DNA of 64,000 nt, taken from NCBI GenBank assembly GCA_963810935.1, contig CAWEPK010000005.1:160001-224000 (forward strand). The letters are read 5' to 3'. The stretch's first letter is position 1; every line of letters begins with the position of its first letter. The notes under the pieces were generated by a model, which had not been told where the DNA came from, made no database searches, and saw nothing but the letters and a program-made list of their open reading frames with translations. Positions 13,872 through 41,253 of the stretch are shown here, piece after piece. The position numbers and the translations under genes are program-made. This DNA comes from an uncultured delta proteobacterium (GTDB lineage Bacteria > Desulfobacterota > Syntrophorhabdia > Syntrophorhabdales > WCHB1-27).

Positions 13872-13964
13872 TTAGAGTCGGCGGAATGGCTCGTTGCAGC
13901 TTGAATGCGTTTATGCAAGGCCGCAATTATGCGCCCGGGCAAGGGCGACTGCCGCATCGCGGGG

Positions 13965-17440: not shown

Positions 17441-18325
17441 ATGAAAGGCATCATTTTGGCCGGAGGCAGCGGCACGCGACTTTTTCCGCTCACCCTCGGC
17501 GTATGCAAGCAGCTCATACCCGTATACGACAAGCCGATGATCTACTTCCCCCTCTCGGTGCTGATGCTGGCCGGCATCAGGGATATCCTCATCATCTCGA
17601 CGCCGCAGGACCTTCCGCGCTTTGAGACCATCTTCAAAGACGGCTCCCACCTGGGGCTTCGTTTCAGCTACGCTGAGCAACCCCATCCAAACGGGATTGC
17701 CGAGGCTTTCATCATCGGCGCGGATTTTGTGGGCGCCGACGACGTCTGCCTCATACTCGGGGACAACATATTCTACGGACACGGCCTTACCGCCCGGCTC
17801 AGGAAAGCCGTAGCCGACGTCCACGATCTGGGCGGCGCGACGGTCTTCGGTTACTATGTCAGCGACCCGGAACGGTACGGCATAGCCGAGTTCGACGAAC
17901 ACCTGAACGTCCTGTCGATAGAGGAAAAACCGAAAAATCCCAAATCGAACTATGCGGTGACGGGCCTCTACTTCTACGATAACAGCGTTATCGGGGTCGC
18001 GAAAAACATAAAGCCGTCGGCCCGGGGAGAGCTGGAGATCACGGACGTCAATAACGCGTACCTTAAAATGGGCAAGCTCCATGCCGAGCTTCTCGGCAGA
18101 GGGTACGCCTGGCTCGATACGGGCACCCACGAGACGCTCCTGGAGGCAGCCGAGTTCATGGCGACCATAGAGAAGAGACAAGGCCTCAAGGTAGCCTGCA
18201 TAGAGGAGATCGCCTACAGGCTTGGATACATCGACGCGGACCGGCTCCTTACCCTCGCCGAGCCGCTTAAGAACAACGGCTACGGCAAGTACCTTCTGGG
18301 CCTCGCAAAAGGACCAAGGTCATAG
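17441..18325 (+). CDS. rmlA: Glucose-1-phosphate thymidylyltransferase
   Basis: [48 protein letters not shown]. Confidence 0.97.
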
Positions 18326-18333
18326 CCGGCCTC

Positions 18334-19194
18334 ATGAGGGTCCTCATCGCCGGGAAAAGCGGTCAGCTTGCGTGTGAGTTCACAAGACAGCTTTCCGCGC
18401 CCGCCTTCACCGTACTGGCTCCCGACGAGAAAGAGCTCGATATAACTAACATTGAGACGGTCAGGACCATAGTCGGCGCAAGCCGGCCGGACGTTGTCCT
18501 CAACTGTGCAGCCTACAACCTGGTGGACGACGCGGAGAGGGCGCCGGGGCCGGCCTTTGCCGTGAACGCGACGGGCGTTGCGAACCTGGCGGCAGCATGC
18601 AGGGAAGCGGGCGCGGTTTTAGTCCATTACGGGACCGACTACGTCTTCGGCGGCCTGAAAGAAACGCCGTACACGGAAGAGGATAACCCCGACCCGATCA
18701 ACGCTTACGGGCAGAGCAAGCTGGCAGGAGAGAGGCTGCTCGCCGAAAGCATGGAGGATTACCTGCTCCTGCGCGTGAGCTGGGTCTTCGGAGACGGGCG
18801 GCAGAACTTTCTTTACAAGATGCTGCAGGCGGCCCGCAGCCGCGAGGTGATCGAAGTTGTCGACGACCAGGTCTCCATACCCACCTCTACGCGGGACATC
18901 GTAAAGTATACGATGAAGGCGCTCGAAAAGGGTCTCCGGGGGCTCTACCATCTGACCAATAGCGGCTTCGCCTCGAGATACGAGACGGTACGCTACAGTT
19001 TTTCCAGGCTTGGTGTTGCCGCCAGGGTGGTGCCGGTCGGCACGGACCGCTTCCCTGCCCCTGCCCGCCGTCCCCGCTTTTCAGCCCTCTCGAACGCGAA
19101 ACTGGCGTCGGTTCTCGGTGCCGAAATACCCCACTGGACCGACGGCGTGGACTGGTACGTTGAAAGGAATGCGCAGGTCCAAGGGAGCGTATAA
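18334..19194 (+). CDS. rmlD: dTDP-4-dehydrorhamnose reductase
   Basis: GKSGQL, NCAAYNLVD, TDYVF, YGQSKLAGE, VVDDQ, PARRP. Confidence 0.93.
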   Translation: MRVLIAGKSGQLACEFTRQLSAPAFTVLAPDEKELDITNIETVRTIVGASRPDVVLNCAAYNLVDDAERAPGPAFAVNATGVANLAAACREAGAVLVHYGTDYVFGGLKETPYTEEDNPDPINAYGQSKLAGERLLAESMEDYLLLRVSWVFGDGRQNFLYKMLQAARSREVIEVVDDQVSIPTSTRDIVKYTMKALEKGLRGLYHLTNSGFASRYETVRYSFSRLGVAARVVPVGTDRFPAPARRPRFSALSNAKLASVLGAEIPHWTDGVDWYVERNAQVQGSV

Positions 19195-19348: not shown

Positions 19349-20117
19349 ATGAAAGTCGTCATTCTGGCAGGCGGACTGGGCACCCGCTTGAGCGAGGAAA
19401 CGGTAATCAAGCCGAAGCCCATGGTCGAGATAGGCAGCAGGCCCATCCTGTGGCATATCATGAAGATATACGGGCGCCATCACTTCGACGACTTCGTTGT
19501 CTGCCTCGGCTACAAGGGTTACATCATAAAAGAATTTTTCGCGAACTACGTCATCCACCAGTCGGACATCACGATCGACCTCCGCGCCAACAGACTCGCT
19601 TCTGCGCAGTAACAACACCGAGCCGTGGAGGGTAACGCTCGTAGGTACCGGAGAGAAAACGATGACTGGCGGCCGTGTACTGCGGGTCAGGGATTACCTG
19701 GAAAACGAGACGTTCATGCTTACATACGGAGACGGGGTAGCCGACATCGATATCGGGAAGCTTCTCGCGTTCCACAAGAGCCACGGCAAGCTCGCAACGG
19801 TGACCGCAGTCCGCCCGCCTTCCAGGTTTGGCGGCATGTCGATCGAAGACGGCCTCGTTACCAATTTCATCGAGAAACCCCAGATAGGAGAGGGCTGGAT
19901 CAACGGTGGGTTCTTTGTGCTGGAGCCCGGCGTGCTCGATTATATAAAGGGCGATTCCACGCTGTTCGAGCACGAGCCTTTGGAGATGCTGGCACGGGAG
20001 GGACAACTGGCCGCCTACAAGCACGAAGGCTTTTGGCAGTGCATGGACACAGTGCGCGACGTAGCGCTCCTCAACGAGCTGTGGGAATCGGAGCACTGTC
20101 CCTGGAAGGTCTGGTAG
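19349..20117 (+). CDS. rfbF: Glucose-1-phosphate cytidylyltransferase (one frameshift near 19600)
   Basis: VVILAGGLGTRLSEET..KPKPMVEIG; MTGGRV; WINGGFF; GFWQCMDT; PWKVW; span 769 = 3n+1. Confidence 0.93.
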
Positions 20118-20118
20118 G

Positions 20119-21238
20119 ATGGAACGGGCGCGCGATATCCTTCGCAGGGCTTACCGGGGCAAAAGAGTCCTCGTTACGGGCCACACGGGTTTCAAGGGGT
20201 CCTGGCTGGCTACCTGGCTCCTGGAATTGGGCGCCGAGGTGACGGGGTACGCCCTCGCGTCCACTACGGAACGGGACAATTTTGTCGTCTCCGGTCTCGC
20301 CGACCGCCTTACCGATGTCCGGGGCGACGTGAGGGACTTCGAAGGCCTGAAGGCCGTCTTTGACGACTTCAAGCCGGAGTTCGTCTTCCACCTCGCTGCC
20401 CAGGCCCTCGTAAGGAGGGGATACCGGGACCCCAAGGAGACCTTCGATACAAACGTCGGGGGCACTGTCAACGTGCTCGAGAATTGCCGCCTCAGCAATT
20501 CGGTCTCGACAATAGTCAACGTGACGAGCGACAAATGCTACGAGAACAGGGAATGGTCCTGGGGATACCGCGAGTGCGACCCCATGGGCGGCTACGACCC
20601 TTACAGCTCCAGCAAGGGGTGCTCGGAGCTTATAAGCGCCGCTTACAGGACGTCCTTTTTCAACAGCGATGGGGCATCGCGGAAGGTCCTCGCGACCGTC
20701 CGGGCCGGGAACGTGATAGGCGGCGGGGACTGGTCCGAAGACAGGATCATACCCGACTGCATCAGGTCGCTCGAAGCGGGCAAGGCAATAGGCGTAAGAA
20801 ACCCCCGCGCAGTGAGGCCGTGGCAGTTCGTGCTGGAGCCTCTCGGCGGCTACCTGCTCCTCGGCGCTGTGATGGGCACGGACCCGGACAGGTACGGCGG
20901 TCCATGGAATTTCGGCCCGGACAGGCTCTTCAACGGTCACCGTGGGCGAGCTTACAGGCCTGGTCGTAGACGCATGGGGCTCCGGGAGCTGGGAATCGAC
21001 AGCGACCGGTCGCGAGACGCACGAGGCGGGCCTGCTCGCCCTGGATATAAGCAAGGCGCGATACACGCTAGGCTGGCGGCCGAGTCTCACTATCGCCGAT
21101 GCGGTCGCAATGACGGTCGAGTGGTATGCCGCCTGCGTGAAGGGTGCAGGCGCGGCGCCTATATGCGAAAGCCAGATAAGAACTTACATGGAGCGAATGT
21201 CCATTCATGACACGGGAAGAAGAACAGATCAGGGGTGA
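20119..21238 (+). CDS. rfbG: CDP-glucose 4,6-dehydratase (one frameshift near 20925)
   Basis: [45 protein letters not shown]-terminus [13 protein letters not shown] in the next frame. Confidence 0.93.
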
Positions 21239-22525
21239 GATTTCCGGTCTCGTCGAGAAGCTCTACCGGATGAAATACGGCCGCAGCGATTTCGTCCCGG
21301 GAAAGACGCCCGTCCGCTACGCCGGGCGCGTCTTCGACGAGCGGGAAATGAAGAACCTCGTCGATGCGTCGCTCGATTTCTGGCTTACAGCCGGCCGGTA
21401 CGCCGAGGAATTCGAGTCAAGGTTCGCAGAATTTTTCGGCCTTTCAGACGCGATCCTCGTGAACAGCGGCTCGTCCGCCAACCTCGTCGCAGTGAGTGCC
21501 CTCACCTCGTCCAAGCTGGGCGACAGGAGGCTCAAACCGGGAGACGAGGTAATCACCGCAGCAGCGGGCTTCCCCACGACGGTTGCCCCTATCGTCCAGA
21601 ACAGGCTTATCCCCGTCTTCGTCGATGTCCGGATAGGAACCTACAACGTCCTTCCCGACGAGGTCGCAGCGGCAGTCGGCCCGAGGACCCGCGCCATCTT
21701 TCTGGCCCATACCATGGGCAACCCCTTCGACCTGGAAGCGGTCTGCGAAATCGCCCGCAGCCATGACCTCTGGCTGATAGAGGACAACTGCGACGCCCTG
21801 GGGAGCCGCTACGACGGGAAGCTGACGGGCACCTTCGGACAGATAGCGAGCACGTCCTTTTACCCGGCCCATCACATCACCATGGGCGAAGGGGGATGCG
21901 TCGTGACCGATTCGGAAGAGATAGCGCGGGTAGCGCGCTCCTTCAGGGACTGGGGAAGGGACTGCTACTGCAGCGGAGGAGAGAACAACACGTGCGGCAA
22001 GAGGTACACGCAGAAGTTCGGCGACCTTCCCTTCGGCTACGACCACAAATACGTGTACTCCCATATAGGATACAACCTCAAGGTCACGGACATGCAGGCG
22101 GCAATCGGGGTCGCCCAGCTCGACAAGCTGGAAGGCTTCATAGAAAAAAGGAAGGCCCACTTCGAGCCTGATCATGCAGGGGTTGAAGCCCTTCGAAGAC
22201 CGTCTTTACCTGCCCGAGGCGACGCTTCTGGCGGACCCTTCATGGTTCGGCTTCGTCATAACCGTCAGGGAGGGTAGCGGCTTTACGCGGAACGAGCTCG
22301 ACGTCGTACCTGGAGCAGAACGGCATAGAGACGCGCAACCTCTTTTCGGGCAACCTGACGCGCCAACCCGCCTATATGGAAATAGAAAAGCGGCAGGTAG
22401 GAGACTTGAGCAATACCGACTACGTCATGGAGAACACGTTCTTCATCGGCGTTTACCCGGGCCTTGACCGGGAGCAGATCGACTATATGATAGACCGCAT
22501 AGGCCGGTTCATCGGGAGCCGCTGA
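21207..22525 (+). CDS. rfbH: CDP-4-keto-6-deoxyglucose 3-dehydrase E1 (two frameshifts near 22168 and 22305)
   Basis: [68 protein letters not shown]; span 1319 = 3n+2. Confidence 0.93.
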
Positions 22526-23248
22526 TTGCCGACACCTGTTAAGATACCGGTAGTCGCCCAAACGGTCGTGCGCCACACGGACACGGTCAAGACCCTGCTT
22601 TTGAAGCCCCTCAAGAGGCTACCGGCCTTCAGGCCGGGACAGTTCCTCCACCTGGCCATTGACCCTTACGACCCGGCAGGCTTCTGGCCCGAATCGCGTG
22701 TTTTTTCAATCGCCAGCTCGCCCGGCCGAGACCTCGTGCGCGTCGTCTTCTCCGTGAAGGGCGCATTCACGTCGAGGATGTTCAACGAGATCGGGGAAGG
22801 CGATGCATTGACCGTCAAGCTGCCTTACGGCAGCTTCCTCTTCGAGGCGGACCGGCCCCTCGTTTTGATAGCCGGCGGGACCGGCATAACGCCTTTTATC
22901 TCCTTCCTCGAGCACTCTCTCGACAAGCCATCGCCTGCCCGGATCAGCCTCTACTACGGGATGAGGAGCAGAGCGGACTTCGTCTGTAGCGACGTCCTCC
23001 GGGAATGCACCCGCACCATGAGCGGTTTCCGGTGCACTTGCTGCTTCGAGGACGGCGGTTTGGTCGAAGGTGTGAGCAGGTGCGAGAAGGGCATAATCCC
23101 AATAGATGAGATTATCGCCGAAAACCGGACGCAAAAGGAATCCCTCTATTATCTCTCGGGTCCGCCGGAAATGATAAAAAACGCCAGATCCCGCATCGCC
23201 GCAGCCGGCATAGATGAAAGCAACATCAGGGTGGACGATTGGGAATAG
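22526..23248 (+). CDS. FAD/NAD(P)H oxidoreductase (FNR fold), candidate E3-type reductase without a ferredoxin domain
   Basis: FRPGQFL, RVFSIAS, PYGSF, LIAGGTGITPF, YLSGPPEM; directly after rfbH. Confidence 0.75.
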   Translation: MPTPVKIPVVAQTVVRHTDTVKTLLLKPLKRLPAFRPGQFLHLAIDPYDPAGFWPESRVFSIASSPGRDLVRVVFSVKGAFTSRMFNEIGEGDALTVKLPYGSFLFEADRPLVLIAGGTGITPFISFLEHSLDKPSPARISLYYGMRSRADFVCSDVLRECTRTMSGFRCTCCFEDGGLVEGVSRCEKGIIPIDEIIAENRTQKESLYYLSGPPEMIKNARSRIAAAGIDESNIRVDDWE

Positions 23249-24322
23249 AGACTTCCAGCCGCCCGTCTGCGCCTGACGCTAACCCATTGGTCTCCGACCT
23301 GGACCACGTCCTCGCATCGACGCGCGGGTTGTGGGAGCAACTCCGGGGGAAATCGATATTCGTCACCGGCGGGACGGGTTTTATCGGGAAATGGCTCCTC
23401 GAAAGCTTTGTCCGGGCTTCCGACGTGCTCGATTTGCAGGCGCGGATGACGGTCCTTACCAGAGACATAGGGACTTTCACGGACGAGCACCCTCGTCTTG
23501 CCCGCCACCCGGCAATCCGGTACATCGAGGGTGACGTAAGAGACTTCACCTGGCCCAAAGAAACTTACTACGCGGTCATCCACGGGGCCGCCCAGGCAAG
23601 CGCCGAGCTGAACCGGGAGTACCCGCTGCTCATGACCCGCACGATCACGGAGGGGACACATAACGTCCTGGAAATGGCAAAAGACAGGGGCGTGCGCCGC
23701 TTCCTTTTCATCAGCTCCGGCGCCGTCTACGGCGAGCAACCGGCCGATATGGCCCATACACCGGAACAATATCGCGGCGCACCCGACTCTCTCGATCCCG
23801 GCTCTGCCTATGCCGAGTCCAAGAGAATGGGCGAGGCTGCTTTGTTCCATCTATTGCGCCCGCTGCGGCATCGAGACGATTGCCGCCCGGTGTTTCGCGT
23901 TCGTCGGTCCCTACCTCGACCTGGATATACACTTTGCCATAGGGAACTTCATCCGGGACGGCCTCAATGGCGGTCCCATTATAGTAAACGGGGATGGAAC
24001 ACCGCTTCGCTCCTATCTTTACACGTCAGACCTTGCGATATGGCTATGGGTCCTTCTCTTGTCGGGGAAGGCAGGCCAGGCATATAATGTCGGGTCGGAA
24101 GAGGCTGTTTCCATCGCGGAGCTTGCGGCTTGCGTTGCCGCCTGCTTCGAGCGACGGACGGAGGTTGTTATCAGAGGGCGTAAGGAACCGGACAAGCCCG
24201 TCGAGCAGTATGTACCCGATACAACGAAGGCGCGTACCGAGCTCGGCTTGAGTCAGCATATCGATCTGACGAGCGCTGTGAAAAAGACCATCGAGTGGCA
24301 CAGGGCCGTTTCATGGAGATAG
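23239..24322 (+). CDS. NAD-dependent epimerase/dehydratase/reductase (one frameshift near 23835)
   Basis: VTGGTGFIG, ISSGAVYG, YAESK, ARCFAFVGP, GDGTPLRSYLY; span 1084 = 3n+1. Confidence 0.88.
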
Positions 24323-24347
24323 GGAAGCCAGGCAAAAGGCAAGATAG

Positions 24348-26165
24348 ATGAAACTGACGGACTACGTGATCGATCGCCTTGCCGCCCGGTATGGGGTGCG
24401 CGATATCTTTATGATCTCCGGCGGAGGGGCAATGCACCTTGTCGACTCTGTCGGCAAAGAAACCCGGCTCCGCTATCTCTGCCCCCATCACGAGCAGGCT
24501 GCGGCCATCATGGCGGAAGGCTATTCCCGCGTAACCGGCCGTCTCGCCGTATCAGTCGTAACCAGCGGTCCCGGCGGCACGAATACCCTTACCGGAGTAA
24601 TCGGCCAATGGCTCGACTCGGTGCCGGTCCTCTATCTTTCCGGACAGGTTAAACAGGAGACAACGATAGAATCGTGCCGCGATCTCGGTCTCAGACAGCT
24701 CGGCGACCAGGAGATAAACATCGTTGATATCGTTAGGCCCGTGACGAAGTACGCGGCGATAGTCAAGGACCCGCAAGATATCCGTTATCAACTCGACAAG
24801 GCGGTCTACATCGCTACCCACGGTCGGCCCGGCCCGGTATGGCTCGACATCCCGCTTGACGTGCAGGCGGCGTCGGTCGATCCGGAGAGCCTATCAGCTT
24901 ACGACAGCCGGGAAGACGAGATGCCATTCGACAGGGCCGCGCTTGCAAGCCAGGTAGAGCGCGTTGCCGCTTTGCTGCAAAAGGCGGAACGTCCTCTTCT
25001 TGTTGCCGGACAGGGCATCAGGATAAGCAAGGGCATCGACTTGTTCAGGCGCGTGGTGGACAAGATAGGCATCCCGGTAATCACCTCGTTCTGCGGGTAC
25101 GACCTTATGCCGTCCGATCACCCCCTGTTTGTCGGAAGACCGGGAACGCTGGGAACGAGGTTCGGTAACTTCGCCCTGCAGAATGCAGACTTGCTCATAA
25201 CGGTCGGCTCCAGAAATAATATCCGCCAGGTGAGTTACACACGGGGGGATTTTGCCAAGAACGCCGTAAAGGTCATGGTTGACATAGACGAAGCAGAACT
25301 TAAGAAACCAAGCTTTCATCCGGACATCGCTATTTGCGCAGACGCAAGTGAGTTCCTGAGGCTGCTTGGCGAAGCCGTAGAAACGAGACCGCTCCCCCGC
25401 TGGGATTCATGGATCGACTGGTGCAAAGAGCGCAAGAGTCGCTACCCCGTCGTGCTTGCGGAGTACTGGGATGACAAGAAACTGGTAAATCCGTACTGTT
25501 TCACCCAGGCGTTAACGGAGTCGCTCGGCGAAGGCGCGACTGTTGTGGCAGGTAACGGCACCGCCTGCGTCGCCCTCTTTCAGGCAGGTATAGTGAAGGA
25601 CGGACAGCGTTCTTTCTGGAACTCGGGATGCGCCTCGATGGGCTATGACCTGCCCGCGGCCATAGGCGCATGCGTCGCGGCCGGAAAAACCGTTGTCTGC
25701 CTGGCCGGTGACGGCAGCCTGCAAATGAACATACAGGAGCTGCAGACCGTCTACCATAACAGGCTACCCATAAAGCTCTTCGTACTGAACAACGGCGGCT
25801 ATGTGTCGATCAGACAGACCCAGGACAGTTTTTTCGGAGGCAGGCACGTCGCGTGCGGACCCGACAGCGGGGTCACCTTCCCCGACATCTGTCGCGTCGC
25901 CCTGGCCTATGGGATACCTTCATCCGTCATCTCAGGTCATGAAGGCATGAAGGATAAGATAAGGGAGACCCTGTCAACGCCCGGCCCCAACGTATGCGAA
26001 GTCCTTCTTTCCCCGGAGCAGAACTTCAGCCCCCGCGTCTCATCGAAAAAGGAACCGGACGGGAGGATCGTATCGAAACCCCTCGAGGATTTGTACCCCT
26101 TCCTGCCGAGAGAAGAACTCGAGAGGAACATGCTCGTGCGGCATAAAAAAGGCGACAAGGAGTAA
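24348..26165 (+). CDS. ThDP-dependent carboligase, acetolactate-synthase-like (YerE-like by context)
   Basis: GGGAMHL, HHEQAAA.MAEGY, TSGPGGTN, GRPGPVWLDIPLD, GDGSLQMNIQEL...NNGGY; no ilvH neighbour. Confidence 0.88.
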   Translation: MKLTDYVIDRLAARYGVRDIFMISGGGAMHLVDSVGKETRLRYLCPHHEQAAAIMAEGYSRVTGRLAVSVVTSGPGGTNTLTGVIGQWLDSVPVLYLSGQVKQETTIESCRDLGLRQLGDQEINIVDIVRPVTKYAAIVKDPQDIRYQLDKAVYIATHGRPGPVWLDIPLDVQAASVDPESLSAYDSREDEMPFDRAALASQVERVAALLQKAERPLLVAGQGIRISKGIDLFRRVVDKIGIPVITSFCGYDLMPSDHPLFVGRPGTLGTRFGNFALQNADLLITVGSRNNIRQVSYTRGDFAKNAVKVMVDIDEAELKKPSFHPDIAICADASEFLRLLGEAVETRPLPRWDSWIDWCKERKSRYPVVLAEYWDDKKLVNPYCFTQALTESLGEGATVVAGNGTACVALFQAGIVKDGQRSFWNSGCASMGYDLPAAIGACVAAGKTVVCLAGDGSLQMNIQELQTVYHNRLPIKLFVLNNGGYVSIRQTQDSFFGGRHVACGPDSGVTFPDICRVALAYGIPSSVISGHEGMKDKIRETLSTPGPNVCEVLLSPEQNFSPRVSSKKEPDGRIVSKPLEDLYPFLPREELERNMLVRHKKGDKE

Positions 26166-26171
26166 AACGAC

Positions 26172-26972
26172 ATGAACTCCGTTGAACAGAGAATGGTAGA
26201 GATACTGAAGGAGCTTCGGGAAAGCTACGGCGCGCTCGCCGTGCGGGCCGAGTTTGAGGCCGAAGGGACGCGCCTTGAGGAGCTCCTGCGCCTCAAGGAG
26301 ATATGCATGACCGCCGGCCTCGGTCTGACCCTGAAGATAGGGGGGTGCGAATCGATCAGGGACATGCTGGAGGCGAAGATCGTGGGGGTCGATTACCTCG
26401 TTGCCCCTATGGTCGAGTCGCCGTACGCGCTGCGGAAATACCTTCAGGCGGTAAGCAAGACATTCTTTTCCGAAGAGGCAAACCCGGTAGAGGTGCTTTG
26501 CAATATCGAAACGGTAACCGGGTGCAACAACTTCGAGGCGATGCTCGGCATACCCGAGCTTGGAGGCCTTAACGGGATAGTTATAGAACGGGTCGACCTC
26601 TGTTTCTCCCTGGGGCTCGACGAGCAAGCCATCAACAAGAGCGAAGTAAATGAGATCGTTCTCGAAACCATCACCAAGGCCAAAAAGAAGAACCTGACCT
26701 GTACGGTGGGCGGAGGGGTATCGGCGGAGTCGTTGCCCTTTTTCGAAAAGATGCCGGAGGGCTATCTCGACCGGTACGAGACCCGCAAGGTCTGTTTCTC
26801 CTGGCAGGGCACACCAAACAGCAGGGACAAGGCCATATTGAAGGCGCTGGGGTTTGAAGTGCTCTGGCTTCGCAACAAGTTCAACTACTTCGACGGCATC
26901 TCTCGTTCCGAAAGGCAGCGGATGAGCCTCATCGAGCAGAGATACTGGAACGCGATAGATGCGCTACTGTAA
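26172..26972 (+). CDS. HpcH/HpaI aldolase / citrate-lyase family protein, paralog 1
   Basis: AEFEAEG, LKIGGCE, APMVES, NIET, RVDL, YETRKV. Confidence 0.75.
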   Translation: MNSVEQRMVEILKELRESYGALAVRAEFEAEGTRLEELLRLKEICMTAGLGLTLKIGGCESIRDMLEAKIVGVDYLVAPMVESPYALRKYLQAVSKTFFSEEANPVEVLCNIETVTGCNNFEAMLGIPELGGLNGIVIERVDLCFSLGLDEQAINKSEVNEIVLETITKAKKKNLTCTVGGGVSAESLPFFEKMPEGYLDRYETRKVCFSWQGTPNSRDKAILKALGFEVLWLRNKFNYFDGISRSERQRMSLIEQRYWNAIDALL

Positions 26973-26987
26973 GAAGAAGGGGGTACG

Positions 26988-27806
26988 ATGAACCGGACAG
27001 AGAAACAAATGACGGAACATCTTCGGAAGATAAAGGACAAATATGCGGTAGTAGGCGTCAAGGCTGAGTTCGAGGCCGAGGGGACCAGGACGGAAGAGCT
27101 TATGAGACTCAAGGAGATATGCCTCTCCGCCGGTGCGTCCCTCACTCTCAAGATAGGGGGTTGCGAGGCCGTCCGGGACATGTACGACGCCCGCACGGTA
27201 GGGGTCGATTACCTCGTCGCACCCATGGTCGAGACACCGTTTTCGCTGCAAAAATATTTGAAGGCAATCGATATAGTCTTTCCGAAAGACGAGCAGGAGA
27301 AGATCGAATTTCTCATCAACGTGGAAACGATTATGGCCGCCGGGAACTTCAAAGAGATGATGACAGTGAACGGCATAGAAAAATTGGGGGGCATAGTCGT
27401 CGGCCGCGTGGACCTCGTGGGCTCTATGGGGCTCGACCGGAGCGCATGCGAGAGCGAAGAGATTTTCGCCATAGCGAAGGACCTGCTCGTAGAAACGAAA
27501 AAACAAAAGATGACCTACGTGCTGGGAGGCGCGATATCGGCCGACTCCCTCTCTTTTTTACGGCGGCTGTCCGGCGAGGCGATGATCGACAGGTACGAGA
27601 CAAGAAAGATCTGCTTCTCGTGCCCGGACGCCTTAAAGGACGGGGCCGAGCAAGGGATAGCGGAGGCCGTGGCGTTCGAGCTTTTGTGGCTGCAAAACAA
27701 GCGAAGCTTTTACAAGGCCATCGCTGAGGAAGACGATAAGAGGATCACGATGCTCGAGGCGCGCCACCGTCAGGCGGAGACCGGACAGGGCGTTAAGGGG
27801 GCGTGA
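26988..27806 (+). CDS. HpcH/HpaI aldolase / citrate-lyase family protein, paralog 2
   Basis: KAEFEAEG, LKIGGCEA, APMVET, NVET, GRVDL, YETRKI. Confidence 0.75.
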   Translation: MNRTEKQMTEHLRKIKDKYAVVGVKAEFEAEGTRTEELMRLKEICLSAGASLTLKIGGCEAVRDMYDARTVGVDYLVAPMVETPFSLQKYLKAIDIVFPKDEQEKIEFLINVETIMAAGNFKEMMTVNGIEKLGGIVVGRVDLVGSMGLDRSACESEEIFAIAKDLLVETKKQKMTYVLGGAISADSLSFLRRLSGEAMIDRYETRKICFSCPDALKDGAEQGIAEAVAFELLWLQNKRSFYKAIAEEDDKRITMLEARHRQAETGQGVKGA

Positions 27807-28480
27807 TGGAAGCGGGCAGGCTTTCCGCGCTGGTCACGGGCGGCTCGGCGGGGATCGGTCTTGCCGTCGCCAAACGGCTGAAGGCGGAAGGCATCGACGT
27901 CATTACGCCTACCAGGCGCGATATGGACCTTTTGTCGGACGCATCGATAGACGCATACCTTAAGTCCCTCTCCCGGCCGGTCGATATCCTCATCAATAAT
28001 GCAGGCGTCAACATCATTGCGCCTCTTGCCGATATCACCGACGACTATATGCGGGAAACGATCCAGATTAATCTTCTCGCGCCTTTTCGCCTGGCCCGTG
28101 CGCTTGCGCCCGGTATGGCCGAGCGGAGTTACGGCAGGATAGTAAATATCAGCTCGATCTGGGCATACGTCAGCAAACCCGGAAGGCTCACGTATGCCAC
28201 GGCCAAATCCGGCCTGCAGGGAATGACGAGGACGCTGGCCGTGGAGCTCGCGCCTTACAACGTCCTAGTGAATGCCATAGCGCCCGGCTTCGTGAATACC
28301 GAAATGACGCGCCGGAACAATACCAGGGAGCAAATAGAGGCCATCGAGAAGAACATCCCCGCGGGCAGACTTGCGGAGCCTGAAGAGATCGCCGAGGCAA
28401 CCGCATTCCTCGCGTCAGAAAAGAATTCCTATATCACGGGCCAGACGATACTGGTAGACGGCGGGTTTACATGTCTCTGA
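27803..28480 (+). CDS. Short-chain dehydrogenase/reductase
   Basis: TGGSAGIG, NNAG, YATAK, PAGRLAEPEEIA. Confidence 0.9.
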   Translation: MMEAGRLSALVTGGSAGIGLAVAKRLKAEGIDVITPTRRDMDLLSDASIDAYLKSLSRPVDILINNAGVNIIAPLADITDDYMRETIQINLLAPFRLARALAPGMAERSYGRIVNISSIWAYVSKPGRLTYATAKSGLQGMTRTLAVELAPYNVLVNAIAPGFVNTEMTRRNNTREQIEAIEKNIPAGRLAEPEEIAEATAFLASEKNSYITGQTILVDGGFTCL

Positions 28481-29544
28481 TCACCGTCAAATCGAATATC
28501 CGGGACTACACGGTGAGCTTCCAGGAATCGTTCGCCTTCCTGGACGACCTCAAAAAAAAGCAGGAGAGGTGCTACGTAATCGACGAAAATGTGTGGCGTC
28601 TTTATTCGGCCGGGCCGCTCAAAGACCTCGCCGGCTCGGACGTTGTCGTGCTCCCCATACAGGAGGAGCTGAAATCCCTGGAGAGCGTCGAAAAACTTTA
28701 TGACTACCTCGTCCGGCGGACCGCCAAGCGCAACCTGACGCTTATCTCCATCGGAGGCGGCATCCTTCAGGACATATCCGGGTTCGTCGCGTCTACCCTC
28801 TACCGGGGAATTGACTGGGTCTTCATCCCCACCACCCTGCTCGCCCAGGCAGATAGCTGCATCGGCGCGAAGACCTCCCTGAACTATAAGTCCTTCAAAA
28901 ACCTGATAGGCACCTTCTATCCGCCGTCCGAGGTCATCGTTCATACCCCTTTTTTGCTCACGCAGGAGGACGTCGACTTTTACAGCGGGCTGGGCGAGGT
29001 CATAAAGCTGCATATGATCGGGGGCATGCAGTCGCTTCGTAAGATCGCCGGGGCAATGCCTGCGATAGAGCGTAAGGAGGCCGACGCGCTGAAGACATGC
29101 GTCTATGACTCCCTCGTCATTAAGCGCGGCTACATCATGGACGACGAATTCGACACCGGCAGGCGGAACATGCTCAATTTCGGCCATTGCTTCGGACACG
29201 CCATCGAGTTCGCGGCAGGCTACGAGATCCCGCACGGGCAGGCGATCGTGCTCGGCATGATGCTTGCCGAGATCGTCGCGAAAGAGCGCGGATTGCTTTC
29301 CCGGGAATTCTGCGGATTTCTTTCCGCGAAGCTTTTGTTGCCTGCACTAAAAGTAAAGGTCAGAACGGAACATCTCGACCCGGCAAGAATCGTCGAAGCC
29401 ATGCAGAAAGACAAGAAGCGGGTCGGCAAGGGGCTTGCTCTTGTCATGATGGGCGACAACTGTGAGATGTTCAAGGTGAACGATCTCACTGCGCGGGAAG
29501 CCTCTGACGCGCTCGATGCCGTATCGGTCGACCTGGCCCTCTGA
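28471..29544 (+). CDS. 3-dehydroquinate synthase-like sugar-phosphate cyclase
   Basis: GGGILQDISGF, PTTLLAQADSCIGAKT, KNLIGTFYPP, GEVIK, LNFGHCFGHAIE, PHG. Confidence 0.85.
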   Translation: MSLITVKSNIRDYTVSFQESFAFLDDLKKKQERCYVIDENVWRLYSAGPLKDLAGSDVVVLPIQEELKSLESVEKLYDYLVRRTAKRNLTLISIGGGILQDISGFVASTLYRGIDWVFIPTTLLAQADSCIGAKTSLNYKSFKNLIGTFYPPSEVIVHTPFLLTQEDVDFYSGLGEVIKLHMIGGMQSLRKIAGAMPAIERKEADALKTCVYDSLVIKRGYIMDDEFDTGRRNMLNFGHCFGHAIEFAAGYEIPHGQAIVLGMMLAEIVAKERGLLSREFCGFLSAKLLLPALKVKVRTEHLDPARIVEAMQKDKKRVGKGLALVMMGDNCEMFKVNDLTAREASDALDAVSVDLAL

Positions 29545-29644: not shown

Positions 29645-30614
29645 ATGAGAAAACTGATAAGCATAATCGCGTCGGCATTCAATGAGGAAGGCAACATAGA
29701 AGAGCCTGTCCCGGCAACTCAAGGCCGTTTTCGACGAGAACGAGAGGTACGACTTCGAGGTGATCCTGGTCGAGAACGGATCGAGCGACCGCACTTTCGA
29801 AAAGATGCTAAAGCTCAACGAAGAGGACGGACGGTTCAAGATCGTGCAATTGTCGAGGAACTTCAGGATGGACGGCGGCATAACGGCCGGATTGAGCCAT
29901 GCCTCGGGCGACGCGGCCGTCATCATGACGGCAAACCTCCAGGACAAACCGGAAGTTATTACCGGTTTCATCAGGAAATGGGAAGAGGGTTATGAAAACG
30001 TCTACGGGATAGTTAGGAAAAGGACGGGCAAAGGGTTGCTGAGGCGATTCAACTCATTCTTGTTCTACAAGATAATAAACTCCATGACGAGCGGCCTGAT
30101 CCCCGAGAACGTGAGCGATTTCAGGCTTATGGACCGAAAGGTGTACGAAGCGATCAATTTCATGAAGGAGCGTAATCGCTTTCTTCGCGGCATGGTGGCC
30201 TGGACCGGGTTTAAGTCCGTCGGAGTGGAATACGAGCGGGCCAGGAGGTTTTCGGGCAAGTCTCACGCCCATTCGCTTCACGTCCTGCAGCTCGCAATCA
30301 ACAGCATATTCGCCTTTTCATACTTTCCCATCCGCTCAATCTCGTTTTTAGGCATAGCGTTGTCGGGGGTATCCCTTCTTTACCTCCTCTATACCGTAGT
30401 CAGGATATTCGAGAAGGGCGTTCCTTTCGCCGGTTACGGCACCATCGTCTCCCTCATAGTCCTGATGTTCGGGATCCTCTTTTTTATCCTCGGAATATTG
30501 GGCCAGTATATCGCGCAGATATACGAGGAAGTGAAGCAAAGGCCGAGCTATATCGTTAGCGCGAAGGTGGGGTTTGCAGATACGGCTGCCGCAGCGTCGA
30601 GGGACGGCAAATAA
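29645..30614 (+). CDS. GtrB-like GT2 polyprenyl-phosphate glycosyltransferase (one frameshift near 29705)
   Basis: FNEEGNI, ENGSSDRT, LSRNF, DFRLMDR, ERNRFLRG, two C-terminal TMs, YEEVKQRP; span 970 = 3n+1. Confidence 0.88.
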
Positions 30615-30650: not shown

Positions 30651-32663
30651 ATGCTTCAATCAATCTACTATCTTCTTTTTATATACCTCTACCTTTCTTT
30701 CCTCGGGGCGGGCCTCTATCTGCTTCTCGCTCCGTCCTGGCTTAGGAAGCCGTACTATCTGCCCTTCGCAGTCCCGGTCCTCGGCTCGTCGCTCCTCTCC
30801 GTGCTGGGAATGTACGTCATCTGCCTGCGGCTGCACATCGGGGCGCTGATTCCTGTCTCCCTGACAGCGGCAGGTGTCCTGCTTCTATCGGGTCTATTGG
30901 CTCACCGGCGGGAAATCAGTCGAACCTGGTCCGAATTGAGGAATATACGACCGAGAATAAAGCATTTGCTGGTGGCCGTGCCTGCGATTATATGCGTGAT
31001 GCTGGCGGTCCTCTGGCCCGCTGTCAGGGAAGGGGCGCCGACCGTGCCTTTCCGGATCGGTCCCGATCAGATGTGCAATGTGATCGAGGCCCAATTCTTC
31101 CTGTCGGGCGGAACGATGAACAGCCCGACCGAGATAAACCGTTTCAGAAAAGACGATTGGATTCCAAGGTTGGCCATAGAGGGCATGCGGTGGAGTTTTC
31201 CGGCCGCTCTTGCGACTTATAACCGTCTTCTCGGAAGCCCTCACACGTACCGGGTCGGGTATCCCGCGATCGCTTTGCACCTGATATTCTTAGGCGGCCT
31301 GGCGTACTGCCTTCTTTATTACCGCTTCGGTCTGTCGCCGCCGGCCTCGTTGCTCGGCGGGGCCGCCGTTACCCTCAACTGCAACATGCTCAATGCGATC
31401 TGCGAAGGGTTCTGGGCGCAGGTCTTCACTATGCCGATGTTCGTCATCATGCTCCTCGCGTTGCTCGATCTACGGGACACTGAGAAAGTGCAGTCCCGGC
31501 CTGATATTTGGAAGTCGGTCGTTCTCCTCTCCCTTCTCGCCTTGCCTCTCATCACCGCATGGAGCGAAGGAACTCAGATCGTGCTTTATTTCTGGGTGAT
31601 CACGCTGGCGCTCGACCTTGCGCTCAAGAGGAAGATATCGAAGACTAACCTGATCGTACCGGTGGCAGCGCTCGTCACATTACTGCTCGCCGCCCCGGTC
31701 CTCCCGATGCTCAAGCAGCATTATATCAATGTAGCCAACCACTTTCTGCTGAATAGCGGGTTCCCGCAGCCGCATTGGGCTTTCCCATCGGAGATACTTG
31801 GCTTATCCGATATGTATCACAATTTCATGCGGTGGTTCGGGCGCTATTTTGTCCCCAAGACCGTACGCATGACGGGAGGTAGTCTTATTTTCAACACGAT
31901 TGCCTCCATAGTCATAATAGCCGCGTTCGCGCGACATACGCTCACCTCCCGATCCCTCGACAAGCCGTTTTGGCTGGCTGCGCCCGTCTTCGTCACTCTA
32001 ATCCTGCTTGCGTCACGCTTATCGGGTCATCACAATTTCCTATACATGAAGAGCTATACGCTCTTCGTGCCGCTTCTCTTCACCTGTTTTTACGGTTTAC
32101 AGCCTTCCTCTGATCGCTTCAAGCCCATATATGACAGGGCAAGGTATGTTCTGTCCGCTATTATTATCGTCGTCGGCCTCTCCTACGTCCACGGGTATTC
32201 CGCCACCAGCACGTATGTCACAAACGACATGATGGAGCTGCACGCATACTCCCACAGCACTGATCTTACCAATGCCGTTTTTATGACGAGAGGGCCGGCG
32301 GGCCTATCTCCCGAGCAGAGATACAGGCAATACATGCTCGACTTGCTGCTTTGTCCCATTATTGGCGCCAATGTACTCGATCAATGGATTGTGGTAGAAC
32401 CCAAGTACCGGGACCAGCATTTCGAGAGACATTTCAGGAACCATGTATACTTGCTCTTAAGGAAAAGCGACCTTCCCTCCTGGCCGCCGGTAGAGCGAAA
32501 AGCCGGAGAAAAGATCGTATGGCAGAACAACACATTTGCGATAATCGATACGGGCAGGTTGTTTCGGGACGCCTTCACGAATGAGAGAAGCGAGCCGGAC
32601 TTGAAGGTTTTCTGGGAGACTATCGAGTTGTCCAGGTCGAATCCGAGGGGAGGAGGTCTGTAA
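30651..32663 (+). CDS. Multi-pass membrane protein, probable GT-C fold glycosyltransferase
   Basis: 670 aa, >12 hydrophobic segments, loop containing GPD, soluble C-terminal domain; follows the GtrB-like gene. Confidence 0.55.
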   Translation: MLQSIYYLLFIYLYLSFLGAGLYLLLAPSWLRKPYYLPFAVPVLGSSLLSVLGMYVICLRLHIGALIPVSLTAAGVLLLSGLLAHRREISRTWSELRNIRPRIKHLLVAVPAIICVMLAVLWPAVREGAPTVPFRIGPDQMCNVIEAQFFLSGGTMNSPTEINRFRKDDWIPRLAIEGMRWSFPAALATYNRLLGSPHTYRVGYPAIALHLIFLGGLAYCLLYYRFGLSPPASLLGGAAVTLNCNMLNAICEGFWAQVFTMPMFVIMLLALLDLRDTEKVQSRPDIWKSVVLLSLLALPLITAWSEGTQIVLYFWVITLALDLALKRKISKTNLIVPVAALVTLLLAAPVLPMLKQHYINVANHFLLNSGFPQPHWAFPSEILGLSDMYHNFMRWFGRYFVPKTVRMTGGSLIFNTIASIVIIAAFARHTLTSRSLDKPFWLAAPVFVTLILLASRLSGHHNFLYMKSYTLFVPLLFTCFYGLQPSSDRFKPIYDRARYVLSAIIIVVGLSYVHGYSATSTYVTNDMMELHAYSHSTDLTNAVFMTRGPAGLSPEQRYRQYMLDLLLCPIIGANVLDQWIVVEPKYRDQHFERHFRNHVYLLLRKSDLPSWPPVERKAGEKIVWQNNTFAIIDTGRLFRDAFTNERSEPDLKVFWETIELSRSNPRGGGL

Positions 32664-32666
32664 GCA

Positions 32667-34839
32667 ATGACGCGGATAACGACAATTGTAAATGCGAAAA
32701 TGGTCCTGGCCTGCGCCATCCTAGCCGCAGTCCTGTTGCTGCTCCTGCTCGTCTTCGGAGACAGGCTCGTGTACCGGCCGATAAAGCCGGTGAGCATAGA
32801 GCATATCGATTACGATTCGAAGTCGGCCGACAGGACCCTGTCATCAGCAAAAGAATTCACCCGGCCGAGAAGGATTGTCGCGCGTGATATGGATATATCC
32901 TTCAAAATGAAAATCTATTCCATCAGCCAATACGACGACGTCTTTCAGACCGGCCCGGGTAATGCAGGGGTGCGGATGGAAGTTTCAAGACCGGGTACGC
33001 TGGGGCTGATTGCGGGGAGGGCCATCAATACCTTCATTCTCACTGATTCCCTGGAACCGGGCAAGGAATACGAGGTAAATCTCAGAATACGGGGAGGGCG
33101 CGTCCATATAGCATTGAACGGTTTTGCGGTTTCCGCTACGTATTGGAAAGGCAGATACTTCAACGCATCGGACATAAAGGTTGGGACCGGATGGGGCGGG
33201 TCGAGGCCCTTCGACGGCCGCATCAGCGACTTCAAGGTCGCATACCGGCCCTTCAGATACCATAAGCACCTGGAGAAGACTATCGATTTCACGGAGGGGT
33301 TGCTTGGCGGGCTTATGCTTCTCCTGCTTGTTCTATATCTACGCCTGAGGACAAGAAAGAAACTATCCGAGTTATGGCGCGGTCTCGGCAGCGCCAGCTA
33401 CGTTTATTGCGCAGCTTTTGTCGTATGCTGCCTGGTTTTTCTAACTCCTGTCTTTCAGCACCTTCTCACGCCTCGCGTCTCTGTTCCCATGACCGTCGAC
33501 CCACAGTTCATGCTTCTCATCTTATCCTTGATTCTGCTCTCGGCCTTCTTAATGACGAAACGGATCGACCTCGCAAACACCCAGGCAAAGGCTCGCTTTA
33601 CAGCAACGGTAGTGATGTGCGGGTTCGTGGTATCATACCTGTTTCTCTATGTACAAGCCATTGTGTATGGAGCCGATATATCGGTTACAGCGATACTGCC
33701 CGTGGCCCATAGATTCGGAGATTTCATGGAGAATGGAGCCGCGTTGTCCAGGTACCAGCTCTACGCAGGGGCTCCCGGCCACGGGTATGAGATGAGAGGC
33801 GTCTTCAATCATTTCCCCGCGTCCTTTCTTCTCGTGGATCCATTCCTCCGGCAGCACCACAACGGACTTCTACAGTACATCATGCTGTTTTCCGTTTATT
33901 TCTTCTTTTACTCTTTCTTCAAGATGAGACGCATCGAGCTTACTTCAAGGGTTAAATACAGCCTGGTATTCTTATGTCTTTCTTTCCCCACCATGTTCAC
34001 TATCAGCACAGGCCATCCCGAGGGTATACTTTTCATACTCCTCTCCCTGTTCTTTCTCTTTTACTACAAGGATAGGCAAATCCTGGCTTCCCTCTACCTC
34101 GGACAGGCAATCGCCATGAAGCTGACTCCGGCAGTCTTTCTTATTCTCCTAGTCTCCGACAGGCGCTACAGGCAGTCTCCTCTGGACTCTCGGTTTTACA
34201 GCACTCCCGACCTTCGTGGCATTGATGGTACTTGACGGAGGCTTAAATGGCGGGCTTCTCAATTACTATCATCGTATGACGGCAAATTTGTCGGCGTGGA
34301 CAGACATTTCCGTTGTCCGCGGCGTCTCTACAGAGTACGGGAGCAGCCTCTTCTTCGCGCTCCGTACACTTTGGGGAAATTCTTTACCCCCGGTCGAGTC
34401 TCTCCTCCGTCCCTGGACGGCTTTTTCGCTTCTGATGTTCTCGGGGCTTTCCGTCTATGTCGTTGCCTACGAGAAAACGGCGTGGAAGAAAGTAATGCTC
34501 CTGACCATCGCCATGACTATATTGCCTTTTGTTTCCTTTGACTATAAGCTTACCCAGTTCTTCATACCCCTGTTCCTGTTCTTTGACGACGACCGGCCTG
34601 ACAAATATGCCGCGGCCTATCTCTTCCTGGTGGGCCTTCTGCTCGTTCCCAAACAGTATCTGGGCCTATGGATGCCTCCCGTTATCGACCCCTTCATAAT
34701 GATTTTCATCGGGGCGCTGGTTGTCGTCTCTCACGGACGGCTGAGCCTCGGTCCGCTTAAGGCTTTTCGGTTCAGGGCACGGTCCCAGGAAGCTGTAAGG
34801 GGCGAGAGCATGGCCGAATCGGTTGGGGGATCGCGCTAA
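32667..34839 (+). CDS. Membrane protein with a LamG/ConA-like domain and a GT87/DUF2029-like GT-C region (one frameshift near 34175)
   Basis: Beta-rich VGTGWGGSRPFDGRISDF; FGDF, NHFP, GHPE, AIAMKLTPAVF, SFDYKL; span 2173 = 3n+1. Confidence 0.6.
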
Positions 34840-37499: not shown

Positions 37500-37979
37500 A
37501 TGGTCAAAATAGATAACATCAACGGTTTATCCCTGTATGGAAAACACGGGATGAAAATAAGGTTCGTTGTTGTCGGAGTATGGAATACCGTGCTCGGATA
37601 CGGTTTATTCGTTCTCTTTGACCTGCTATTTGCCGGCATTTTTGAGACTCGTTATATGGCTTACATGACTGCCAACGTCCTTTCGAATGTTATCGCGGTC
37701 CTGAACGCATACATTTTTCACAAGTTCGTCACGTTCAGGGTCAGGACGAAGGGCAGATCAGCGATTATCGAATTCTTTCGCTTTTCCCTCACCTACGTGG
37801 GAACGTTTTTCCTAAGCATCCTGCTCCTTCCTTTATTTGTGGAATTCATCGGTCTGACCCCACGGCTGGCCGCGGCTGTCATTACCCTTATCTGCGTAAT
37901 CCTAAGTTACGTAGGCCACTCAAGATTCTCCTTTCGCAAGGCAGAGCGTGAAATCGCCCCGACGAGGCAAAAGACATGA
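37500..37979 (+). CDS. GtrA family polyprenyl-P-sugar flippase
   Basis: RFVVVGVWNT, N.YIFHKFVTF, EFFRF, SY.GHSRFSF; start may be 37551. Confidence 0.88.
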   Translation: MVKIDNINGLSLYGKHGMKIRFVVVGVWNTVLGYGLFVLFDLLFAGIFETRYMAYMTANVLSNVIAVLNAYIFHKFVTFRVRTKGRSAIIEFFRFSLTYVGTFFLSILLLPLFVEFIGLTPRLAAAVITLICVILSYVGHSRFSFRKAEREIAPTRQKT

Positions 37980-41245: not shown

Positions 41246-41253
41246 GGCCGTAA

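Follow-up and report, generated by a model that had tools for sequence, protein, structure and literature searches.

What sugar is made by an operon that couples a CDP-dideoxysugar pathway to a carboligase, two aldolases and a relative of 3-dehydroquinate synthase (DHQS)? The operon begins at position 19,349 of a 64,000-nucleotide stretch of DNA (the window; positions 160,001 to 224,000 of contig CAWEPK010000005.1, assembly GCA_963810935.1) from an uncultured delta proteobacterium. A first-pass annotation had put it forward as a pathway for an undescribed branched or carbocyclic sugar. We find that it very probably makes a sugar with a long acyl-derived branch. Our full explanation, which we hold with moderate confidence, is a CDP-3,6-dideoxyhexose of the caryophyllose type, branched at C4 with a long open-chain polyol whose methyl end would arise through the DHQS-like protein.

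The annotation had said that such sugars lack an established biosynthesis, which is wrong. A scheme for erwiniose, caryophyllose and gastriose has been published in which an aldolase, a thiamine diphosphate (ThDP) carboligase and a reductase act in turn (Steitz et al., 2022; PMC9306805). There the homologues ErwE, MMAR_2332 and MyGE were assayed with model substrates, and mutants of mmar_2331-2333 were without caryophyllose. Caryophyllose is 3,6-dideoxy-4-C-(D-altro-1,3,4,5-tetrahydroxyhexyl)-D-xylo-hexopyranose, and the mmar_2331 aldolase is needed for it (PMC5706390). Read from this name, its branch is an open chain of C1′-OH, CH2, three CHOH and CH3, with no carbocycle. In the annotation of the Mycobacterium marinum LOS region (PMC12395582 supplement) the locus spans MMAR_2327-2339 and encodes a GT87 protein (MMAR_2327), a sugar kinase (2328), a DHQS-family protein (2329), a short-chain dehydrogenase/reductase (SDR; 2330), an aldolase/citrate lyase (2331), the ThDP enzyme (2332), a GT2 protein (2333), RfbF (2334), RfbH (2335) and CDP-glucose dehydratase (2336); AroB is encoded elsewhere, by MMAR_2177. 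The operon had been called the best candidate for a new system in the window, but the same gene set is present in this published locus. The pathway type being already published, the operon is not an undescribed one. More than 200 YerE-like clusters are known, mostly without an assigned sugar (PMC12247030, a 2025 review).

In a PE-rich genus 5 of 401 genomes carry the aldolase; of four loci viewed in detail, three (L102-L104) show the block in this arrangement. L104, whose proteins carry Mycobacterium names, matches the published M. marinum coordinates in gene lengths (1278, 1083 and 690 nt) and spacings, when those coordinates are taken to include 200 upstream bases. Compared with orthologues from the window or from the intact related loci L013 and L014, the L104 proteins are identical at 34% (DHQS-like), 46% (SDR), 46% (aldolase), 35% (ThDP), 53% (GT2, against L014), 56% (RfbF), 56% (RfbH) and 42% (RfbG) of positions. 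The aldolases of these congener loci fall into one 90% cluster of 125 members from several Mycobacterium species, with no M. marinum name among the 15 listed. An FGGY kinase gene lies 3′ of the DHQS gene only in L102-L104 (3 of 180 loci), and the L104 kinase as query had no match in the source genome or in the other 177 loci. In the Mycobacterium locus L101:9533-12111, rfbH, rfbF, GT2, ThDP and aldolase genes are followed by an integrase-core gene in the usual SDR/DHQS slot.

The features of the window that bear on the pathway are these, all on the plus strand:

19349..20117, +: rfbF, glucose-1-phosphate cytidylyltransferase (TIGR02623, 8e-67 on the C-terminal piece, plus an N-terminal frame; extra base near 19594)
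20119..21238, +: rfbG, CDP-glucose 4,6-dehydratase (TIGR02622, 395 bits, cut-off 278; extra base near 20924)
21207..22525, +: rfbH (E1), CDP-4-keto-6-deoxyglucose 3-dehydrase (NF011936, 546 bits, cut-off 423; extra bases near 22166/7 and 22299)
22526..23248, +: E3-like FAD/NAD(P)H oxidoreductase (PF00175/PF08030 only, 240 aa; matches reductase components)
23239..24322, +: extended SDR, candidate for the YerF/ErwF role (PF01370 in both pieces; extra base near 23835)
24348..26165, +: YerE-like ThDP carboligase (best PDB match 8RPH; HHEQ and GDG...NN motifs)
26172..26972, +: aldolase-1, derived paralogue with Gly139Glu and Lys25Arg (PF03328)
26988..27806, +: aldolase-2, HpcH/HpaI-fold metal aldolase (PF03328; structure model)
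27803..28480, +: classical SDR, proposed keto-reductase of the donor (PF13561)
28471..29544, +: DHQS-like protein of the TIGR04425 type (400.0 bits)
29645..30614, +: GT2, GtrB/PgfS-like polyprenyl-phosphate glycosyltransferase (PF00535, NF047588; extra base near 29705)
30651..34839, +: membrane proteins (670 aa; 522 plus 207 aa with a GT87 match, PF09594 7e-09 for 32667-34235; the others have no family match), probably GT-C transferases that use a lipid-linked sugar
37500..37979, +: GtrA-like flippase (PF04138; 33% identical to GtrA of L104)

The named genes share one strand, stand in the order first described and mostly abut or overlap, and the tight coupling claimed for them stands. Five of them (rfbF, rfbG, rfbH twice, the extended SDR and GT2) carry six frameshifts that the annotation had passed over, at 19594, 20924, 22166/7, 22299, 23835 and 29705, with one surplus base each. 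The surplus bases are absent from short-read contigs, several otherwise letter-identical, in two to four of the four runs checked, which are from one study and possibly include the source sample; the rfbF base is absent in three runs and the rfbG base in all four. In the related locus L014 the counterparts of the broken genes are whole, as are rfbF (255 aa) and the extended SDR (357 aa) in L013. Because the short-read contigs lack the extra bases and the L014 genes are whole, we treat the six breaks as assembly errors, and a reading of the five genes as pseudogenes is ruled out on the same grounds. The source genome is of 4.06 Mb and 93% complete. Among named relatives of its aldolase the closest bear the labels Syntrophorhabdus and Syntrophorhabdales, and the nearest loci are from uncultured delta proteobacteria.

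The gene set for CDP-4-keto-3,6-dideoxyglucose is complete, with RfbG and RfbH above their NCBIfam cut-offs and RfbF at 8e-67 on a fragment, and family matches thus bear out the RfbF/G/H core proposed at the outset. RfbH has the motifs SFYPAHH, CYC...C and YDHKY, which we take to be the E1 histidine and the 2Fe-2S ligands. The E3 reductase (AscD) has a 2Fe-2S ferredoxin domain fused to its FAD/NAD domain; the flavoreductase here has only PF00175 and PF08030 and no separate ferredoxin domain, and may nevertheless serve RfbH. In the twin-aldolase loci L105, L204 and L206, rfbH and its reductase are absent between rfbG and the ThDP gene. By analogy these loci may make a 3-hydroxy form of the branched sugar, a form known from M. 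marinum and R. palustris (PMC9912281).

The carboligase was correctly described as YerE-like. Its best PDB match is 8RPH (E 1.9e-125), ahead of 5AHK (1.5e-83) and of acetohydroxyacid synthases (AHAS; 5e-76 or weaker). 8RPH is JanthE, which takes pyruvate among other donors (PMC12188165). The window enzyme has the HHEQ and GDG...NN motifs, and scores under every AHAS cut-off. A separate ilvB-like gene followed by ilvN lies on contig C17 of the source genome; this pair and the AHAS scores rule out the enzyme as the housekeeping IlvB.

The DHQS-like protein scores 400.0 bits against TIGR04425, exactly at the cut-off of 400 (399.5 in the genome search), its relatives in L014 and L015 score 406 and 423, and TIGR04425 is also the best model for the mycobacterial copies. 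Against the AroB model TIGR01357 it scores 269.5 bits, under the cut-off of 305. TIGR04425, the family of AroB-related phospholyases, is a hypothetical equivalog model, and in the literature searched we found no assay of a member. The metal ligands (E176/H239/H255) are retained, as first reported. So is the whole AroB catalytic set in an alignment to 3okf and to AroBs of the class (R112, D128, K134, N144, E176, K179, K218, R232, N236, H239, H243, H255 and K315), to which we assign the presumed AroB roles (carboxylate, phosphate, metal), that of His275 being published (PMC7144000). K134, K218 and R232, the carboxylate-binding set of AroB, are invariant in 63 of 63 cluster copies. Three subfamily residues (Q100, W116 and G175) are common to the mycobacterial copies and 62-63 of the 63 cluster copies, and occur in none of 12 AroBs. 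The sedoheptulose-7-phosphate cyclases 2-epi-5-epi-valiolone synthase (EEVS) and desmethyl-4-deoxygadusol synthase (DDGS), and also 2-deoxy-scyllo-inosose synthase (DOIS), are marked by altered residues at the AroB positions L267/H275/K356. Identity with any of these is ruled out, since L235, H243 and K315 are as in AroB and DHQS is closer in the PDB search (5e-45, against 8e-32 for 4p53, 1e-27 for 2d2x and 1e-17 for 5tpr).

In the DHQS reaction the substrate is oxidised at C5 and loses phosphate, is then reduced, and finally undergoes ring opening and aldol closure, two steps that may be spontaneous (PMC7144000). Because they may be spontaneous, the retained residues do not imply a ring. Because all substrate residues of AroB are retained, the substrate should be the pyranose of a heptulosonate phosphate.

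The block is widely conserved. We found 72 loci with the DHQS-like protein, in many phyla, and although many are cut by contig ends, 67 hold an SDR, 63 a ThDP enzyme and 58 an aldolase (five with two), counts that argue against chance clustering. The same loci hold rfbG in 41 cases, rfbH-like genes in 41 (some being generic DegT matches), GT2 in 27 and the flavoreductase in 12. If the donor is terminally phosphorylated, loci without the DHQS gene need another means of phosphate removal, and a HAD phosphatase gene could provide it. The FGGY kinase gene next to DHQS in L102-L104 also speaks for a phosphorylated donor. Among 79 metagenome loci found by aldolase alignment (from the best 80 of 478 confirmed, a set biased to near relatives), 44 have only DHQS, 11 only HAD, none both and 24 neither, all of these 24 being short; Pfam confirms the HAD phosphatase in 10 of the 11. 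From 101 aldolase-anchored loci, 57 with short flanks were dropped; the remaining 44 have DHQS in 33, HAD in 7, both in none and neither in 4, three of which also lack the ThDP gene. Exclusion in these 44 gives a Fisher p of 9e-6, overstated since kin are not independent.

The HAD gene is mostly directly beside the aldolase gene, in the slot otherwise taken by the SDR and DHQS genes. On the aldolase tree the loci of the HAD type lie dispersed (6 changes over 44 rows), and all four well-flanked metagenome loci of the HAD type lack the classical SDR. This exchange shows only that phosphate is removed, not on which intermediate. Of the 33 DHQS-type loci 26 have an extended SDR other than RfbG, and so do all 7 of the HAD type, mycobacterial loci included; because it is present in both types, it and not the classical SDR is the candidate for the YerF role, in which it would reduce the acyloin ketone. 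L092 and L093 have sister aldolases with opposite cassettes, HAD in the former and DHQS plus SDR in the latter. A pairs test with 9 of 9 opposite (p 0.004) was discarded as circular, its rows having been picked for having DHQS or HAD. Four relatives of the class have a Nudix gene 3′ of the DHQS-like gene (L202:12353-12862, L204:12672-13199, L206:10740-11327 and L207:3739-4272), for which the source genome had no match.

The tandem aldolases are 45% identical and both belong to PF03328. The aldolase occurs in 9 of 96 genomes of the window's class, in all nine as a tandem pair, and one class locus (L203, the same DNA as L120) has the tandem pair with HAD in place of SDR and DHQS. On the aldolase tree the two copies form sister clades, that of aldolase-1 with at least 120 proteins. 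Glu139 is present in 93% of 120 aldolase-1 relatives, while position 139 is Gly in all 116 aldolase-2 copies and in all single copies; from HpaI anatomy we take this position to be in the pyruvate-carboxylate pocket. Aldolase-1 retains E113, D142, K55, E60, D64 and the ETRK motif. Aldolase-2 is 46-48% identical to the aldolases of the mycobacterial loci L101-L104, and found no PDB entry by sequence (0 matches at E<=1). Its structure model has a mean predicted local distance difference test score (pLDDT) of 93.9. In one structure search the best folds were 3qz6 (Z 18.2, root-mean-square deviation 2.5, 196 aligned), 1dxe (18.1) and 8adq (17.9), with pyruvate kinase and CLYBL no more than 1 Z unit away.

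A model of an aldolase-1/aldolase-2 complex scored 0.79, against 0.00 for the best control, and its interface, which is symmetric, covers the active-site loops. Of 157 solved complexes 116 come up to the mark used, as do 2 of 215 mismatches; at least 98% of the contacts recur between runs, and the partners have pLDDT of at least 90. The model speaks for compatibility only, as paralogues of an oligomeric fold can pass by likeness and the controls did not include homodimers. Aldolase-1 is possibly a partner subunit or a copy of altered specificity. A heteromer with one non-catalytic subunit has, in our estimate, a little less than an even chance, and we tentatively entertain two separate enzymes for different aldehydes.

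Relatives of the aldolase number 6342 sequences, and in a small-genome sample outside Rhizobiales it was present in 8 of 301 genomes. A plasmid collection gave 3 aldolase matches, among them L085, with rfbF/G, aldolase and GT2 and without ThDP, DHQS or HAD, and the catabolic L086; no cluster-type DHQS was seen among the 30 of 123 records listed. At L086:9048-17069 a family member (35%) stands with aconitase, PrpF and isocitrate-family dehydrogenases, and because of this catabolic context the aldolase family is not confined to sugar branching.

We propose the following pathway. RfbF, RfbG, RfbH and the flavoreductase would make CDP-4-keto-3,6-dideoxyglucose by established family chemistry. The HpcH-fold aldolase or aldolases would join pyruvate, or an equivalent, to a phosphorylated aldose, in the simplest case erythrose 4-phosphate, to give a 3-deoxy-hept-2-ulosonate 7-phosphate that is probably epimeric at C4 to DAHP (the 7-phosphate of 3-deoxy-D-arabino-heptulosonate). 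The DHQS-like protein would carry the DHQS reaction through its first half, oxidation at C5 and elimination of phosphate, and form no ring; it would leave a 7-deoxy keto acid with its ketone at C6 if protonation follows, or at C5 if hydride is delivered to C7, and the classical SDR would reduce this ketone to give a 3,7-dideoxy-hept-2-ulosonate. Working back from the name caryophyllose, we infer this same compound, with D-ribo C4-C6, as the ThDP donor; it is epimeric at C4 to the DAHP series and has H in place of the 7-phosphate. The YerE-like enzyme would then decarboxylate the donor and attach the six-carbon acyl unit at C4 of the CDP-sugar, and the extended SDR would reduce the acyloin. Finally GT2, GtrA and the GT-C proteins would transfer the sugar via polyprenyl phosphate to an acceptor outside the cytoplasm, as their families and the MMAR_2333 phenotype suggest.

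That the extra genes build a longer 2-oxo-acid donor, as the first-pass annotation had supposed, agrees with the published aldolase-ThDP-reductase scheme (PMC9306805) and with the matching mycobacterial block. The non-cyclising deoxygenation by the DHQS-like protein and SDR, read from the sequences, is in our judgement rather probable. A more far-reaching version seems unlikely: DHQS plus SDR as an exchangeable non-cyclising deoxygenase cassette giving a CH3 end where HAD gives CH2OH, combined with an obligate aldolase heteromer in which the Gly139Glu copy has ceased to bind pyruvate and reshapes its partner's site, so that the donor is of another length or configuration, and with a new higher-carbon branched sugar as product.

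Several points weigh against our explanation. In the published scheme the aldolase acts on a C4 aldehyde that is drawn as deoxygenated beforehand, and its text and machine-readable supplement mention no DHQS gene, with 12 of 39 supplement pages and the figures holding no searchable text (PMC9306805). The M. marinum link consists of an annotation and a congener locus, with DHQS and ThDP identities of only 34-35%, and the mycobacterial DHQS copies, at 307-325 bits, are under the TIGR04425 cut-off. The NCBIfam name of that family says 'cyclizing', and closure, if spontaneous, would have to be actively intercepted to give a non-cyclic end, a role for which we found no residue. Two of the 72 DHQS-anchored loci also carry HAD (L057:8528-13580 and L068:502-3190, the latter without SDR), and once kinship is allowed for only 5 supported pairs are left, of which none go the same way and 2-4 are opposite (sign test p 0.25). 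The twin aldolases are left unexplained, and could alter the product.

The alternative that survives best, which we consider unlikely though worth keeping in mind, retains the long acyl branch and has the DHQS-like protein and SDR act elsewhere, for example in making, from another sugar phosphate, a deoxy aldehyde of the 4-deoxy-erythrose type for the aldolase, or has the twin aldolases change the length or stereochemistry of the donor, giving a caryophyllose analogue. Pyruvate plus a deoxy C4 aldehyde is what Steitz et al. propose (PMC9306805), and the DHQS/HAD exchange leaves the dephosphorylated intermediate unspecified; a changed donor would suit the altered presumed pyruvate pocket of aldolase-1 and the 35% ThDP identity to the mycobacterial copy. 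The invariance of K134, K218 and R232, however, points to a 2-keto-acid pyranose, that is, to a substrate formed after the aldol step.

Less likely still is that the DHQS-like protein does cyclise, either to dehydroquinate or an epimer that the SDR turns into a quinate-like cyclitol, or to a ring on the branch as in caryose or bradyrhizose. The full AroB residue set with its Zn ligands, the family name, the possibility of spontaneous closure (PMC7144000) and the aroD and aroE genes kept in the genome, whose products could act on dehydroquinate, all fit this. But a cyclised product would hold no 2-oxo acid for the ThDP enzyme, a phosphatase takes the same slot in other loci, and the text of the bradyrhizose paper names no aldolase, DHQS, ThDP or CDP gene (PMC4743980, figure not covered). 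The same DHQS-family, SDR, aldolase and ThDP block stands in M. marinum, whose described branched sugars are open-chain, the branch of caryophyllose ending in CH3, and the cyclic product first suggested is therefore not supported.

Plain yersiniose, with a C2 branch from pyruvate and the extra genes as bystanders, is improbable: the enzyme is YerE-like and JanthE, its nearest solved relative, accepts pyruvate among its donors, but in many phyla the aldolase, SDR and DHQS genes remain linked to the ThDP gene, and caryophyllose needs the mmar_2331 aldolase (PMC5706390).

That the DHQS-like protein is the displaced housekeeping AroB of the genome, of which it is the sole AroB-like protein with no PF01959 alternative, can be dismissed as highly improbable, since aroF, aroA, aroC, pheA and tyrA matches are missing too and five genomes of the family carry both a cut-off-passing AroB and a DHQS-like copy. 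Of the separate housekeeping genes that the first-pass annotation had proposed to check for, ilvB was found and aroB was not. It had held that a sole AroB would refute the sugar role; formally this is the case here, yet it does not refute that role, because the rest of the pathway lacks matches and relatives have a separate AroB. The source genome gave no match for chorismate synthase (aroC), for DAHP synthase (aroF), or for relatives' aroA, aroC, pheA and tyrA as queries. We take its single PF00275 match to be MurA and its single PF00793 match to be KdsA, from their motifs. The only shikimate genes left are aroD and aroE(K) homologues (contig C4:2030-3627), in mid-contig between unrelated genes. 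aroC is present in 14 of 21 genomes of the family and in 0 of 3 congeners. This pattern suggests that the genus lost aromatic amino-acid synthesis and kept two quinate/shikimate enzymes. AroB above the cut-off occurs in 13 of the 21 family genomes, the five with a second copy beside the aldolase pair among them, and in 4 of 5 further hosts of the DHQS-like locus. In the tree the 12 AroBs of the class group on a separate branch with support 100, and the 63 cluster copies lie outside it. The gene is in a sugar operon and not in an aro operon, as the claim that it lacks shikimate-pathway neighbours implied. On these sequence comparisons we regard the DHQS-like protein as not the housekeeping AroB. 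Because the genome has no DAHP synthase match, the heptulosonate phosphate would have to come from the operon.

In the searchable literature we found no explanation for the origin of the methyl end of caryophyllose, and no paper that connects these branched sugars with a DHQS-like gene, subscription papers, image-only pages and figures being outside the search. What is probably new here, within the same bounds, is the role of the DHQS-like/SDR cassette and the doubled aldolase, for which no paper assigning these roles was found. If our explanation is true, phosphate elimination without ring closure would be a new outcome for the DHQS superfamily, and MMAR_2329 and MMAR_2330 would have roles. 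The end of the branch (CH3 or CH2OH) could then be read from gene content, in a module present in thousands of sequences. A stereocomplementary heptulosonate aldolase would be of use in biocatalysis.

Other genes of the region may be noted. Immediately 5′ of the operon are rmlA and rmlD (17441-19194, plus strand), with no rmlB or rmlC reading frame seen between them, and just upstream of the glycan region a gene with a ParB N-terminal domain is followed by a radical SAM gene resembling spore photoproduct lyase (13905-15795, plus strand). Further downstream is a heptose-type module (40640-42501, plus strand, and 44871-46555, minus strand) in which a SIS (GmhA-like) gene is accompanied by what looks like a fusion of HAD phosphatase and transaldolase (415 aa) and by GHMP kinase and nucleotidyltransferase genes. 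The transaldolase could be a further source of erythrose 4-phosphate for the aldolases.

The operon can be set beside four known systems. With the yersiniose A pathway (YerE, YerF) it shares the RfbF/G/H core, C4 branching by a ThDP enzyme and a reductase; there, however, pyruvate is the only donor, and no aldolase, SDR or DHQS-like gene is needed. The DHQS-like protein shares with AroB and TIGR04425 proteins the fold family and the NAD/Zn and substrate residues, but differs from AroB in scoring under its cut-off, in its separate branch and sugar-operon context, in Q100/W116/G175, and in being replaced by HAD in sister loci. The scheme of Steitz et al. (ErwE/F/I/J for erwiniose; MyGE/MygI/MygF for gastriose; a C6-branched sugar in R. 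palustris) has in common a hydroxylated 2-oxo acid from an aldolase, a YerE-like ThDP enzyme, CDP-4-keto-3,6-dideoxyglucose and a reductase, whereas as published it has no place for a DHQS-like protein or second SDR, and its ErwI is BphI-like where the window aldolase is of the HpcH fold (PMC9306805). The caryophyllose module of M. marinum has the same gene set, with the same ThDP-aldolase-SDR-DHQS order, rfbF/G/H, GT2, GtrA and GT87; the window differs from it in having two aldolases, an E3-like flavoreductase and an extended SDR inside the operon, no match to the FGGY kinase, and a Gram-negative soil bacterium as host.

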